This document shows positions 9,843 to 48,457 of a stretch of 64,000 bases of DNA, in pieces. Position 1 is the stretch's first letter; each line of letters begins with the position of its first letter. The DNA is from Escherichia coli (GTDB lineage Bacteria; Pseudomonadota; Gammaproteobacteria; Enterobacterales; Enterobacteriaceae). The DNA is taken from assembly GCF_030013205.1 (NCBI RefSeq), contig NZ_CP122648.1; one strand, 5' to 3'. The notes beneath the pieces are model-generated. The model did no database searches, had not been told where the DNA came from, and worked only from the letters and a program-made list of their open reading frames with translations. A program made the position numbers and the translations under genes.

Positions 9843-10140
9843 TTTAAACTCCTCAGGTATCCCTGCTAATATTGAAATGTGCATTAATGATAATTTCAGC
9901 CTGTTAATACAATGACGAGATATCATTAAAGACAAATGCATAGCATAACTATAGCGGGATTTACTTTGCAGAGCGCTACTTTTCAGCGTTCAAAAGGCCA
10001 TGGTAAATAAATATTTATCCTAAGATTAATTCTTATTCTGTTGTTTTTTACAATTATCTTCCAGGGAGGGATTCTTTTTCATTATTTGGTAAAAGACCGG
10101 ATGGTATCGGTGCTTAAAATCATCGAACATATAAGTATTA

Positions 10141-11813
10141 TTGCTTTGTATCATCGTAAAAATGTCTTTCAGACATGTGTCATTTATTTTGTCACTAACA
10201 AGTCAAAAATATCACGGGTTATTTATGAAAGTATTTCACAATATATTTAAGCACTTCTCTTCAAACCATCAAGATAAGCATTCAGATAAAGTTAACAGTC
10301 ATCAACACCATGGCAATGTTGATAAAAAACATCGTTCAAAGATAGTTGAAATTGATAAGCTGGATAAACATTCGCAAATAGATAACGATTTTGGCCTGCA
10401 TATCATCTATTTCCTGCAACATGGCTGCTGGAACGTAACTGAACATAGTCCTCAGATAGAAAAACTGTGGTTTTACAATAGTGAGCCATCTATAGATATT
10501 AAAGAATATAATGGTTTCGCCGATAATACTACTGACACGTTTATCTTTACAATTATACCAGACAATAACCATGTGATAAAATTATCGTCTCCCATTACCG
10601 TTACGATTGAGCGTAAGGACGGTTATTATTTTATTAATTTCTCCGGGGATAAATCAGACATAATTTATAAAGTTGATGGGTTTTCTATCATACCTGAAAA
10701 TTTTTTTACTCTTCTTAGCGGTAATTTTAAAGCTGACTGGCGTTGGGCTGTCTCTAAAGAGACGTTTACTAAGGAAAAGTTTGATAGCTATGTTGAATCT
10801 GTTTTTTCAAAAATAGACTTTTATAAACAGTGTGGTGTGATTAACCCAAAAAATCCCAACACGGCTTATTTTGGCGATACAGATGGAAGAGTGGGCGCTG
10901 TACTTTATGCATTGCTCGTTTCAGGGCATATAGGCATCAGGGGAGAGGGGGGAGTTTATTATGTCAATTATTAAAACACGAAGACATGGCGTCATTCGCA
11001 TATGAAAATAAAAAATTGAAAAAACTCTTCACTTTATTAGATACGAGAGACATGATCTTGAATGAGTTGCATCAACATGTTTTTTTAAAAGGCGATGCGA
11101 TTACCCCTTGTATCTTCCTTGGGGATCATACAGGCGATAGATTTAGTACTATTTTTGGTGATAAATATATCCTTACTTTGCTAAATTCTATGCGAAATAT
11201 GGAGGGTAATAAAGATAGTCGTATAAATAAAAATGTTGTCGTTCTGGCTGGAAATCATGAAATCAATTTTAATGGTAACTATAGTGCACGACTAGCAAAT
11301 CATAAACTCTCTTCCGGTGATACATATGACTTAATTAAAACGCTCGATGTTTGTAATTATGACTCAGAAACGAAAGTTTTAACCAGTCATCACGGAATAA
11401 TAAGAAATGAAGAAAATGAATGTTATTGTCTAGGTGCTTTGCAGGTTCCATTTAATCAGATGAAAGACCCAATTGATCCTGAGGAATTAGCAAATATATT
11501 TAATAAAAAACATAAACAACACATGGATGATCGTCTTATCCATCTAATTAGAAGCAATGCTATAGCATCCACACCTGTATATGACAATTATTTTAATAAC
11601 ACTACTGCTTTCAGACCAAAACCTGAAGATATCTTCAAATGTGGACAGACGCTCAAAAAAAGTAAACAGAAATATGGCCATTATGGATTAGGGGTAGATC
11701 AGCATCAAAAAATTGATAATTATACCATGGGGCTAAATTCCTGGAAGATAGCACCTAACGAACGTGGTGATAAAAAAGGTGTCCCAGGGCTTAGTTGTTT
11801 TCAATCTCATTAA
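10141..11813 (+). pseudogene. yhiL: yhiL, DUF4049-family paralog of yhiJ, split by a frameshift into two ORFs (10141..10974 and 10986..11813)
   Basis: The two adjacent ORFs are in different frames and together align to the C-terminal two thirds of the 540-aa yhiJ product (AYFGDTDGRVGAVLYAL; CIFLGDHTGDRFS...VVLAGNHEINFNGNY); AT-rich; likely native start is ATG 10225. Confidence 0.75.
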
Positions 11814-12074
11814 AACTCCATGAATACGGTGGTATATCTTTTTAATCCTGCCAGTATTTCATAGTTTTTCTTAATCGATTGTAGAGGCATGTTCTGATGA
11901 CGCCTCTACAATCTTTAGGGACTTTCTCTACTATGAGATAAGAAATTTCATATTATGCTTTAAGGCTGAATGATTTGTGCAAAATATAATTATTTTTCCA
12001 TCGAACATGAGGTGTTTGTCATAAGATTAAATGATAACTATGTATTCCTCGCGGTGAATTGTATGAGGTAAAAG

Positions 12075-22219: not shown

Positions 22220-23380
22220 CTAAATCAGTAAGTTGGCAGCATCACCTGTTATAGCCATTAGATCCTTATTTGAATTAAGGTTCGTTGGTGCTGTTAGCAC
22301 TGTATCCATTTTTAACTTACCATTAGTTCCTCGCCCCCACCACGTCCATAGCGTGTCAGGTCCTATTACATTTGTATGTAACTCTTTAGCTAATTGGCTA
22401 GCAAATGAATTTTGTCCTTTACCTGTATTACAAGAAAATAACCAAACTGTCATCCCATCTTTATAATTCCCATCAAATTTAATTAGATATGCTAGATCTT
22501 TAGCTGTCATGATACTGCGCGTTGCGGATTCAATAGATGTGGGGGTACCATGCCCCCCGATTGTGAAAACGCCTGGGATATTAATCTCATCAGCTACAGA
22601 ATGGATAAGATCACTTTCGGGGTATAAATTTATATCAACCAAACCTTGCGGATCTACATTTATGACCGGATTCAACGGATACTGATAAAAATTCCATCCC
22701 CCCTTCAGCCCAATCGGATCCTGAGTGATATACCGCCCCTGCAGCGGGTCATAATAGCGGTGGCGGTTGTAATACAGGCCGGACTCCTCATCATACTGCT
22801 GACCCGGCAGGCGGATGAGCTGCTGCAGCTGGTGCGGGTTCTCTTCATTCAGCAGGTTGCCCCACTCATCGTATTCTGCGTACCACGCTGTTGCCCCTTC
22901 CGTGCTGACAAGCGCCAGCGGCAGGCCGCGATGGTCGCAGTGGTACAGGTGGATTTTTCGCGCCGGCGTGTACACCGGGTCCATCTGGTTTTGTATCTGC
23001 TCCACCGTCAGGCCGCACGATGCCAGCCAGCGGCGGCTTTCCTCACTCACCCGGTCAGCCAGGATTTCACTTTCCAGCCGGTCGAGCATCTGCACCAGCA
23101 CCGGCGGGAACACCATACTGCCACCGTCTTCACCGCCGGACTGCTGAAGGGCATCCGCCAGGCTGCGGCGCTGCGTTTTCGCCAGCTCACCGGTGGCGGT
23201 TTCGACCCTGATGAGTGGCGTGAAGCTCCCCGGCTGATAAACCGTCTGGATGCGGGTTCTGTCGTTCTGTATCGTGGTCAGCCGGTCGCCGTCCCAGCCG
23301 TACCAGGTCACTTCCGGTTTCCGTGACAGCGACATCCAGCCCGTCAGGTCCCGTTCACGCCGCCACACCCGTTTTGCCAC
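22220..23380 (-). pseudogene. rhsB: rhsB 3' portion: conserved core end (DPxGL motif) plus C-terminal toxin domain interrupted by IS1
   Basis: 386-aa frame with [13 protein letters not shown]...NVDPQGL then a variable C-terminal domain; the last 8 codons (GDAANLLI) are IS1-derived. Confidence 0.85.
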
Positions 23381-26364
23381 CCTGCGGCCCAGCGGGTTTC
23401 AACCAGCGGCTCTGCATATTGTGTCCGCGTGTAGTGCACCAGCCGGTGCCGGCTGTCGTAATGGTACCGGTGAGTCCGCTCATCATCCGTGCGGATAACC
23501 CCTTCCGGGATGAGGTCGGTTTTCTCCGTCAGCCTGCCGTGACGGTCATACCGGTAAAGATAGTGCGCGTCACGGGCGATACGGTTATCCGGCCACATGC
23601 TGAGGGTGCTGTCCGGGTGCAGCTCCGGGTCGGGCAGGCGGTTGCCCGCCGGGTCCGTGGCATACGGGATGCGGATATCCAGATTCGCTGCGGTGGTGTG
23701 GACGCCGGTCAGCCTGCCGGTGTCGCTGTAGCTGTAACTCCGGGTCTGGCGCGGGCTGCTGATGCGGATGAGTTCGCCGTTGTCGTTCCAGGTGTAATCG
23801 CGGTCATACTGCAGGCTGTTCAGGTGCTGGCTCTGTAACTGCCCGGCAGGGGTGTAAGCGGTGGTGAGTTCATAACGGCCGAAGCTGCGCAGCGTTTCCC
23901 GGTGCAGGCGGTCGCGGGTGTACTCCACCAGCGGTGTGTCGCCGAGTTTCATGCCTGACAGCCAGCCGCTGCCGTAGGTCAGCCATTCCACGGCGGGCAG
24001 GCTGTCCGGTATACAGCGGTTCGCCAGTCCCTGCGTGTTGTAAGCGTGTCTGGTTTCATGCTGCCAGAGCAGTGCTTCCGTCTGCGGATGATGCACCGTC
24101 TGGCGCTCACCGGTCAGGCGGCCTTTCTCATCATACCCGTAATGCACCGTCACCCGGTGGCCTTCGCTGAGATGGCTGATGCCTGTCAGCCAGCCGCGTT
24201 CGTCATACTGCCACTGCTCTGCAGGTTCACCCTTCACGGTGCGGTGAGTGAGGCGGTCTGCTTCGTCATAGTGCCAGTGGGTGACCAGCCCCTCATCCTC
24301 GCTGCGGATAAGTTTACCGGTCAGGTCGTGGTGATAACGCTGTGTGCGGCCGTCAAAGCCGGTTTCCTGTATCAGCCGGTCGAGTACATCGTAACGGAAG
24401 GTGGTGTGGCTGCCGTTTTCACTGGTCAGGCGGATGACCCGTCCGGCAGCATCGTATTCCATACTGCGCGTCAGACCGCCCTGTGTGGTACGGATGGCCT
24501 TTCCCCACGCATCGTACTGTGTCCCGTTTCTGCTGCCGTCCGGGGCAATGACGGCGGTCAGGTCACCGGCGGCGTTGTATTCATACCGCGTTTCATGGCC
24601 CTGCGTGTCTTTCACCGCAATTAACTGTCCACGGCTGTCGTATGCGCGGTACTGACTCAGCCCTTCCTCGCGGTGCACCGCCGTCACCTGACCAAAACGG
24701 TCATGGTCATAACGGGTTACATAACCGGAACAGTCAGTGACGGTCAGCAACTGACCGTAACGGCTCCATGTCATGGTTTTCCGGCTGCCGGTGGCATCTT
24801 CCGTTGCGCAGGGTAAGTCACTGTGTGGATTATCATAACGGTAGCGGGTGATATCGCCGTTGTGTGCGGTTTCCTGAATCAGACGGCCGGATTCATCATA
24901 TTTGCGGCGCAACTCCAGCCCGTCAGTCCCGGTGGCTGACGTTAACTGGTTGTGGTGGTTATAGTAAAATGCCGATGCCCTGCCATCCGGTGTGGTGATG
25001 CGCGTGATGAGTCCCGTCACCACATCCGGGCTGTACTCAGTCGTCCGGCCTGCGGCATCCGTCTGTGCCTTAAGCCCGCCCACCGCGTCAAACTGACTCT
25101 GCGTGACGCTGCCGTCCGCGTGTTCCTTTTTCACCACCCGCTTCAGCCCGCCTTCGCCCTGCGTGTGCAGCACTTCACGGCGGTCCAGACTGTCGGTGAT
25201 GGTGATGCGGTCTTTCTCATACTGATACGTGTAGCTTAAGCCTGCCGGGTTTAGCTGTTCTGTCACCCGCCCGTCGCTGTCGTAACGGTAACGGATTTCC
25301 GGCCGGCCCGTGTGACGGTGCGCCACCATCCGGCCCCGGTATTTATCATCGTAAGTAAAGCTGCGCACCTGTGTATTGCTGCGGTCATACACCGCCGCCA
25401 GTTCGCCGCGTGGCGTCCAGCCATAGCGCACCAGCGGCGCGGCAGGTAAATTCTCCGGGTATTCCGGGTCGTGCGTCAGCCACACGGCAGACAGACGGAT
25501 GCCGTTGTCCCGGCCATATTCGGTGTAACCCGGCAGGGTATCAGGAAAAGCGGACGGTTCCGTCCCGCCGGAAGAGGCCTGCTGCCGGGCTTCTTCTGCC
25601 CGCTGCGCCTGCGTGGTCAGTACCAGCCGGAAGTGACGCCCGGCACCATCCGTCACGCCGGTGATTTCGCCGCTGAATTCGCCGCCAGCCTCACGGTGAA
25701 ACGTCTGTGTGCGCCCGAAGCGGTCCACCAGCCCGGTCAGTACCCGGTACGGCGGCAGCGGCGCGGGCAGCACCTCATCCGCTTCCGGCACCCGCTCACA
25801 CCAGCCGAGCAGCCACCACGGCCCCTGCGGACTGTTTGTCGCCAGATAACGATGCGGACTTAAGCGGAGTTCTTCCGGCAGCGCCTGCCAGAGTGCGGCC
25901 AGCCGGTGACCTTCATCCAGTTTCAGGACACCGCCACGCACCAGCCAGAGTGATTCGCTGCGGCTGTAACCGTCCTCACCGGGAAACAGGTGCTCAAAAT
26001 ACAGGCTTCTGCCGCCGTTATCACTGAGTATCAGTGTGTTATCGCGCAGCTGTAAGCGGATATCCGCAGGCATTTTCCAGCCGGGGCCTAGGCTTCCCAC
26101 CGGCGCGGGCGTTTTTGTCCGGTAACTGCTGTAGGTGCGGGAGAGGATGAACGGCAGCGGGCCGGGCAGTGCAAGGTCTGTCTCGCCGGGAAGGACCTTC
26201 GCACCGAGCAGCGGATTGACCGGATGGCCGGACGTCACCCCGCCGGGGCACACCGAACAGGCCACGCCGGTGGGGGCACCAATACGTACCCCGGCTGAAC
26301 CCTGGACAATGCTACCGCCATACTGCGTCATGTCGCCCTGACGCGCCGCCGGTTTTCCGCTCAT
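23344..26364 (-). pseudogene. rhsB: rhsB core (YD-repeat protein), separated from its 3' part by a frameshift
   Basis: 1006-aa [20 protein letters not shown]... with many YD repeats; ends 37 nt inside the next ORF in another frame. Confidence 0.88.
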
Positions 26365-47065: not shown

Positions 47066-47822
<757 letters not shown>

Positions 47823-47926
47823 ATCAGCATACTTGTCCTTAGCCTTCTGCAGTGACAGCTGGTAGTACAGCGTGCTTCTGGCCAGCCCTGCAGCCTTTAA
47901 CAGGTCAGACTGGCAGTGTCCGCACC

Positions 47927-48457
47927 TCAGGCTCCGGATGACTTTCGTTTTTTCTCCAGCTCCTGGCGCTTTTTTTCCAGGAGATGCTCCTGCATGGCTT
48001 TCAGATATGCATTTTCTGCGCGAAGATAACGCAGCTCATTCTTCATCTCTTCCGGCGTCATGTTTGCCTCGTTTTCATGGGTATCATCAGAACGGGTCAT
48101 GCTTTTCTCCTTCCTGCGCCTGATAAAGGCCTCATTACCAGATTTGCGGTAGCCTTTTATCCAGTTTTTAACCGTGTTGTGGCTGGGAATGTTAAACCGG
48201 GCAGCTACCCGGGGTAGAGACTCAGAATGCCCGAGAGCATAAAGAACCACGCAAAGTTTATCTTCAGGAGAATAGCTACGCTTGTGTCTGCAATCCAGTG
48301 CCCGAGGACCGTGAAGAAGAAAAAGATTAATCCAGTGTGAGAGGCTGGTGTGAGAAAGTTGAAAGAGTTTTGCCGTAGAAATGATGCCTGCATGACCGGC
48401 CAGGTAATGATTTACAGCGGCAAGTTTTACTTCAAATGAATGTTTCATAAACTGCAC
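47927..48457 (-). CDS. insJ: IS150 orfA (InsJ), helix-turn-helix protein
   Basis: 176-aa ORF (alternative start 48448) matching InsJ as recalled. Confidence 0.9.
   Translation of the reverse strand: MQFMKHSFEVKLAAVNHYLAGHAGIISTAKLFQLSHTSLSHWINLFLLHGPRALDCRHKRSYSPEDKLCVVLYALGHSESLPRVAARFNIPSHNTVKNWIKGYRKSGNEAFIRRRKEKSMTRSDDTHENEANMTPEEMKNELRYLRAENAYLKAMQEHLLEKKRQELEKKRKSSGA
47969..47977 (-). promoter_or_regulatory. programmed -1 ribosomal frameshift site A-AAA-AAG of IS150
   Basis: Heptamer in the orfA frame (ctg gaa aaa aag cgc); shifting -1 here joins orfA to the orfB frame, which reads directly into MKQLIASIF... Confidence 0.7.

Follow-up and report, generated by a model that had tools for sequence, protein, structure and literature searches.

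Whether a gene that is read as two pieces has really been lost, and by which change, is the question raised by yhiL in the stretch of Escherichia coli DNA analyzed here (64,000 nt of contig NZ_CP122648.1, RefSeq assembly GCF_030013205.1; hereafter the window). The source clone is a porcine enterotoxigenic E. coli (ETEC). The relevant segment of the window carries prlC-rsmJ-dtpB-uspA-uspB-pitA-yhiN-yhiM-yhiL-yhiJ-yhiY-yhiI-rbbA, according to annotation carried over from near-identical RefSeq records, and yhiL and yhiJ are neighboring paralogues with no assigned function. In the window, yhiL is divided between two open reading frames (ORFs). This division is a deterministic fact of the sequence, for which chance is not at issue. 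We consider that yhiL here is probably a very recent, lineage-specific pseudogene that arose by a genuine one-base contraction of a G tract.

The G tract of yhiL in the window and in related alleles

The two ORFs, 10141..10974 (ending in GEGGVYYVNY and a stop) and 10986..11813, lie on the plus strand in different frames, as seen in the ORF listing. The first-pass annotation had described them as colinear with YhiJ and as separated by a single indel, with the other paralogue intact, and each of these points holds. In BLASTP alignments, aa 174–270 of the first ORF correspond to YhiJ 131–227 (E=9e-19) and aa 11–252 of the second to YhiJ 258–487 (E=8e-50); yhiJ is an uninterrupted gene of 540 aa at 12075..13697; and re-adding one base gives a single ORF of 529 aa. 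The likely start of yhiL is ATG 10225, which is the start given by the Prokaryotic Genome Annotation Pipeline (PGAP) and yields an N terminus, MKVF..., that is kept in a distant orthologue. The TTG at 10141 marks merely the longest possible ORF and is not the likely start.

The position of the indel differs from the one first proposed, 10960–10990. Alignment puts the lesion 10–20 nt upstream, in the G tract at 10947–10952 (G6), and the span 10960–10990 contains only its consequences, namely the TAA stop at 10972–10974 and the interval up to the internal Met codon (10986). The intact allele of strain LP-26-E1-261 (529 aa, 99.9% identical) reads GAGGGGTGGAG, while the window reads GAGGGGGGAG, with one base fewer. 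GGGGTGG, with Trp243, is present in hundreds of genomes and in most related alleles, including the other closely related alleles listed, and compared with these the missing base maps between 10950 and 10951. In the sister strains K_EC180 and ETEC4075, the site reads GGGGGGG (G7), Gly replaces Trp at position 243, and the coding sequence (CDS) is intact. Like the G7 alleles, the GGGGTGG alleles form a 529-aa single ORF.

The sister strains are very close to the window. K_EC180 (Korea, swine) differs from it by 1 substitution in 50 kb, and ETEC4075 (Belgium, from the project of the G6 strains) by 4. Repair of the window allele with G gives a protein identical to WP_063118527.1 of these sisters, with no further decay, and repair with T gives a protein that differs from other alleles at residue 243 (W) alone. 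The intact alleles WP_063118527.1 (K_EC180 and ETEC4075) and WP_000862327.1 (LP-26-E1-261) have the same domains, DUF6860 and DUF4049, as the window gene, and the nearest are 99.9% identical to it in nucleotide sequence. Intact alleles, including the 536/537-aa forms of strains H1 and EDL933, encode a continuous protein of 529–537 aa, whereas the window allele ends after residue 249. The window gene combines an indel that is not a multiple of three with a premature stop inside a conserved domain, the configuration of a frameshift pseudogene. Nine porcine ETEC chromosomes, including NZ_CP122719.1, match a 1901-nt query (10000–11900) at 100% identity, and a tenth differs from it by one single-nucleotide polymorphism (SNP). 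PGAP names the identical allele of ETEC1748 "DUF4049 domain-containing protein, frameshifted"; the yhiL frameshift is already flagged in RefSeq and is a known, ordinary strain-level gene loss.

The distribution of the alleles is narrow. An exact 81-mer containing G6 was present in 10 of 5,426 complete E. coli genomes, all of them pig ETEC from one Belgian project, and its G7 counterpart in 5, from four projects. An uninterrupted tract is thus confined to 15 of the 5,426 genomes, and all other sampled alleles have GGGGTGG or GGGTTGG. Because G6 was found in ten genomes only and the repaired protein is identical to that of the sisters, the frameshift appears to be extremely young.

Had intact orthologues the same two ORFs, the arrangement would have to be taken as native; all intact orthologues sampled are single ORFs. 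One CDS of 529–537 aa is present in each of ten sampled E. coli strains (LP-26-E1-261, ECSC054, H1, MS1685, EDL933, XH990, UTAK-8, RM13514, ETEC4075, and K_EC180). The Escherichia-like genome GCA_051322105.1, whose flanking genes are 88–93% identical to those of the window, shows the same synteny (uspB-pitA-yhiN ... yhiY-yhiI); there, one ORF of 527 aa encodes both DUF6860 and DUF4049, and a yhiJ of 540 aa comes next. Since this distant genome also has one 527-aa ORF, yhiL does not have a two-gene architecture.

From these comparisons, a two-step history can be proposed. The widespread allele GGGGTGG (Trp243) would be the starting point; a T-to-G change in the pig-associated clone would have produced GGGGGGG (Gly243) with the frame kept, and replication slippage may then have contracted GGGGGGG to GGGGGG. 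Deletion of the T directly from GGGGTGG was considered as well, but comparison with the true sisters (G7) makes G7-to-G6 contraction likelier. Translation from ATG 10225 would leave the native frame after Gly242, add 7 foreign residues, and end at the stop at 10972–10974. The 5′ product would keep DUF6860 and, of DUF4049, only the first strand with motif I (GDTDG); motif II (GDHTGDR), motif III (GNHE), and the conserved histidines further downstream would fall in the other frame, at 10986–11813. If DUF4049 is a metallophosphatase, as judged below, neither fragment would complete the metal center, and the gene would therefore be functionally dead.

Base calling, switching, and recoding as alternatives

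The base call itself should be considered first. The isolates may truly carry G7 (or GGGGTGG), with a consensus that under-called the homopolymer by one base. We regard such an artefact as unlikely, though a number of observations do weigh against a genuine loss as proposed above. G6 occurs in ten assemblies of a single project only, while G7 occurs in four independent projects. No other G/C run of ≥7 exists in 50 kb. Over these 50 kb, the window and K_EC180 are separated by 1 SNP and four indels, and each of the four is a difference in homopolymer length, a pattern that is also typical of sequencing error. Assemblies from the same project have other suspect frameshifts, in livJ of ETEC4075 and lyxK of ETEC1748. 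As for the order of events, deletion of the T to give G6, followed by a frame-restoring G6-to-G7 insertion, costs the same number of events as the proposed order. As for function, the phosphatase role rests on a model of moderate confidence, a motif I that reads DXD, and a Metallophos match just below threshold.

Against an artefact, ten separate assemblies agree on G6 despite SNP differences and a large RHS/IS1-associated rearrangement, and ETEC4075, from the same Belgian project, was called G7, so that a systematic error sparing ETEC4075 would be needed. Near-duplicate assemblies of the project are 5 nt apart in total length (5,067,014 versus 5,067,019 and 5,142,642 versus 5,142,647); because they differ by 5 nt in ~5 Mb, random indel noise is considered to be low. 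The case nevertheless shows why a homopolymer frameshift seen in the assemblies of one project alone calls for read-level confirmation.

If the base call is genuine, the gene could be switched off rather than dead. In the most elaborate form of this idea, Trp243Gly made the stable yhiL of a pig-adapted clone prone to slippage, and G6 is the OFF phase of a newborn phase-variable gene for a WipA/WipB-like phosphatase, which we consider very improbable. The plainer form, in which the tract made by W243G toggles reversibly between G7 (ON) and G6 (OFF) within the clone and yhiL is phase-variable, seems to us marginally more improbable again. Both lengths, which differ in frame, do occur among genomes that are only 1–4 substitutions per 50 kb apart (G6, n=10; G7, n=5), and reversion from G6 to G7 is as parsimonious as contraction from G7 to G6. 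However, six or seven G's are short for high-frequency switching, and the tract is not long and maintained, since a T breaks it up in almost every other E. coli. Moreover, the ten isolates of the subclade uniformly have G6, suggesting a single fixed event. A one-base tract change that shifts the frame inside an ORF is shared with bacterial homopolymer-slippage pseudogenes and contingency loci. Unlike the tracts of contingency loci, that of the window is short (6–7 nt), new, limited to one clone, and not conserved, suggesting a one-off loss and not an evolved switch.

It is scarcely credible that the gene is split or recoded, with YhiL function supplied by the products of both frames through re-initiation at ATG 10986 or −1 slippage on G_GGG_GGA: the stop is followed by another ATG after only 11 nt, and the zero-frame G GGG GGA at 10947–10953 formally matches X_XXY_YYZ, where a −1 shift would yield the full-length W243G protein, but neither the orthologues examined nor the sister strains show the two-ORF form, no AGGAGG-type Shine–Dalgarno sequence precedes 10986, and the break cuts through a single compact domain, with motif I on one side and motifs II and III on the other. 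Programmed −1 frameshifting in particular was rejected, as the orthologues are in-frame single ORFs and the downstream 87 nt contain no stimulatory RNA structure (minimum free energy, −7.3 kcal/mol; z=0.03 versus shuffled sequences). A recent pseudogene formed by contraction of the G tract is accordingly the reading that we carry forward.

Constraint on yhiL and its loss in other lineages

The selective constraint on yhiL was evaluated by the Nei–Gojobori method from the ratio of nonsynonymous to synonymous substitution rates (dN/dS). Intact yhiL alleles mostly give values of 0.5–1.0, compared with 0.15–0.21 (about 0.17) for yhiJ, 0.04–0.08 for yhiN, and 0.03–0.07 for yhiM. The GC content of the yhiL-yhiJ block is 32–38%, versus 55–59% in the flanks. 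In K-12, the yhiL-yhiM and yhiJ-yhiL intergenic regions are reported to be associated with H-NS, and "promoter islands" are reported at yhiL (PMC3946193, PMC3661553). In the literature on yhiL and yhiJ that we searched, the genes appear only as neighbors or as H-NS/promoter-island sites, and no paper was retrieved for DUF4049 or under the names of the ETEC strains.

The frameshift in K-12 yhiL is the closest parallel to that of the window. The K-12 gene, named "YhiJ/YhiL family protein, frameshifted" by PGAP, is found at the same locus with the synteny yhiM-yhiL-yhiJ-yhiY-yhiI and with yhiJ intact. Its lesion (L004:4378-4458, gene nt ~1193) is an A8-to-A7 change, at a tract that reads AAAATGAA or AAAATAAA, interrupted, in other alleles. 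As in the window, where G7 would have become G6, a homopolymer created by substitution of the interrupting base was shortened by 1 nt. The two events are nevertheless independent: the window lesion lies at gene nt ~727, not ~1193, and the two alleles are 89% identical. The lesions also differ in spread, since the exact 81-mer of the K-12 type was found in 1,008 of the 5,426 complete genomes and the window type in 10.

Further disruptions of yhiL were found. A nonsense mutation at codon 42 is shared by 184 genomes (exact 81-mer), and yhiL of strain 2014C-3097 has both a frameshift and an internal stop. In two genomes, insertion sequences (IS2 and IS1) are annotated beneath split yhiL matches. 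In strain HH45 (L019:5843-7685), all that is left of the yhiL-yhiJ pair between yhiM and yhiY is a DUF4049 remnant of 296 nt, and in 1,231 of the 5,426 genomes megablast found no match for the yhiL region.

The data support the conclusion that yhiL is weakly constrained and has been lost repeatedly and independently in E. coli; the relaxed constraint is deduced from the raised dN/dS together with the several independent knock-outs. Loss of yhiL would be tolerated because the gene is weakly constrained, AT-rich, and repeatedly lost by E. coli lineages. The first-pass annotation had offered relaxed selection or pseudogenization after duplication as the background of the frameshift. The former is borne out by these results. 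Decay soon after duplication is not, as the duplication is ancient, judging from the ~30–37% identity between YhiL and YhiJ, and the loss is recent and confined to one clone.

Being limited to one clone and to a dispensable gene, and already publicly annotated, the frameshift carries little weight by itself. The G6 allele could mark one Belgian porcine ETEC subclade. The locus also offers a clean two-step case, in which a substitution would build a homopolymer and slippage would kill the gene, with an independent parallel in K-12. The more interesting by-product is the prediction, described below, that the YhiJ/YhiL (DUF4049) proteins are fast-evolving WipA/WipB-like metallophosphatases.

The DUF4049 domain, its family, and other features of the window

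The features of the locus are listed in Table 1. According to Pfam, the intact protein comprises DUF6860 (aa 40–164) and DUF4049 (aa 210–526). The protein of the closest T allele (L002), which is one residue off the repaired window sequence, passes the Pfam gathering cut-offs with E=1.3e-154 for PF13258 and E=8.5e-82 for PF21661, and both window fragments are also above the gathering cut-off. The 5′ fragment has a complete DUF6860 but only positions 2–35 of the 333 in the DUF4049 profile, and the 3′ fragment covers positions 67–333 (E=7e-127). A break at the domain boundary was ruled out, since codon 243 lies 33 residues into DUF4049.

Table 1. Positions of yhiL, its parts, and yhiJ in the window
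Feature	Position	Strand	Basis or remark
yhiL, probable pseudogene (DUF6860 + DUF4049)	10225..11813	+	1589 nt, 1 base under the intact 1590-nt allele
5′ reading frame	10225..10974	+	242 native residues + 7 out-of-frame (GVYYVNY) + stop
DUF6860 (PF21661), N-terminal, aa 40–164	10342..10716	+	Pfam E=3e-82
Motif I, GDTDG, aa 217–221, family-invariant	10873..10887	+	At the metallophosphatase DXH position, reads DXD
Lesion, G6 tract (GGGGGG)	10947..10952	+	Alignment to G7 and GGGGTGG alleles
Premature TAA stop from the frameshift	10972..10974	+	ORF listing, sequence
3′ reading frame	10986..11813	+	275 codons; starts at Met255 (internal in the intact protein); remainder of DUF4049
Motif II, GDHTGDR, aa 300–306	11121..11141	+	Variant of GDXXDR; columns nearly invariant
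Motif III, GNHE, aa 343–346	11250..11261	+	Alignment; sub-threshold Metallophos match over the region
yhiJ, intact paralogue, 540 aa, DUF4049	12075..13697	+	Pfam E=1e-177

In the DUF4049 alignment, G217-D-T-D-G221 is invariant. G300-D-x-T-G-D-R306 and A342-G-x-H345-E346 are nearly invariant, the latter containing GNHE in YhiL and YhiJ and GDHE in a distant homologue, as are H389 and H486. The metallophosphoesterase signature of WipA consists of DXH, GDXXDR, and GNHE, the last of which has the test form GNH[E/D] (PMC5454105). Compared with this signature, YhiL has GNHE, a motif II that is one residue longer, and a motif I of the form DXD, without His, all of which are conserved in the family. 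Scores for the related hidden Markov models (HMMs) were below their cut-offs: 20.7 versus 21.5 bits for PF00149 (Metallophos), 14.2 versus 27 for PF21663 (WipA_Phos; E=0.031), and 16.6 versus 300 for NCBIfam T4SS_Wip (E=0.0033). These sub-threshold matches also point toward a metallophosphatase, at scores short of PF00149 or PF21663 membership.

A structure was predicted with AlphaFold from an input alignment of 10 rows. The mean predicted local distance difference test (pLDDT) score is 52.8; it reaches ~75 in the C-terminal domain and is <40 in the N-terminal domain, which is unmodelled. The C-terminal domain is predicted to adopt the two-sheet β-sandwich of phosphoesterases. A helical hairpin at residues 242–285, resembling the insertion in WipA, is placed between motifs I and II by the model, and the frameshift would strike the first residue of this hairpin. 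Judging from the motifs and the predicted fold, the most likely identity of DUF4049 is that of a PPP-type metallophosphatase resembling WipA/WipB.

The differences from the Legionella pneumophila proteins should also be pointed out. WipA and WipB, phosphatases with the PPP fold (PDB 5n6x and 5nny), are 17–18% identical to YhiL, and the HMM matches are far below the cut-offs. Unlike WipA/WipB, YhiL has DXD and not DXH in motif I and possesses its own N-terminal DUF6860 domain, and no sign was found that supports secretion of YhiL. Searches of the PDB with a single sequence and with a profile gave nothing meaningful; weak matches to phage gp5 and ORF904 were discarded as noise.

The YhiJ/YhiL (DUF4049) family looks tiny, very fast-evolving, and almost confined to Escherichia-type sequences. 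Only 50 DUF4049 matches, mostly fragments, were found among 1.84 billion representative sequences, and the homologue search returned near-identical E. coli sequences only. A scan of GTDB genomes with the family alignment gave 52 pattern sites, of which none was confirmed, and is uninformative on taxonomic range.

Sequence divergence at the locus was observed at several levels. Within E. coli, yhiL alleles are 88–94% identical (up to 11% nucleotide difference), falling to 75% near the 3′ end, and the flanks are 95–99% identical. In the Escherichia-like genome (L020:4061-7623), where the flanking DNA is 88–93% identical to that of the window, the protein identities are 51% for YhiL and 57% for YhiJ. 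The only distant full-length DUF4049 homologue found is P0139 (L013:1071-3233; 720 aa, 35% identity), on a 3.3-kb contig of run ERR10017540. It has an apparently disordered Ser/Pro/Ala-rich N-terminal region of ~320 residues, and GNHE is replaced by GDHE. A 430-aa protein, P0122 (L022:6001-7293; also in L023 and L024), consists of the N-terminal part of YhiL (to ~262) and the C-terminal part of YhiJ, and this chimera apparently arose from a deletion between the two paralogues. In the P0122 lineage, a fimbrial usher/chaperone, an EAL protein, and an omptin are located upstream, where yhiN/yhiM otherwise stand.

Elsewhere in the window, indels between near-identical genomes are nearly all differences in homopolymer length (T9/T8, A7/A8, C5/C4, and T7/T8), as found at positions 19050, 20241, 22334, 36523, and 46944, and a GG/GGG difference renders livJ "frameshifted" in ETEC4075. 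Such indels represent hypermutable tracts or assembly errors in at least one public record. A decayed Rhs region at ~19177–26364 contains an ISAs1 transposase fragment, a frameshifted Imm57 immunity gene, an RHS core fragment, yibG, an IS1 copy, and a frameshifted 4.1-kb RHS core gene. Compared with the window, strain ETEC1748 shows a rearrangement from ~25.7–26.4 kb on, where selAB/yia adjoin in place of nik, and a difference in two homopolymers; the window is therefore not ETEC1748 but belongs to another of the G6 strains. A copy of the IS3-family element IS1397 is inserted between livJ and panM at ~47100–48450.

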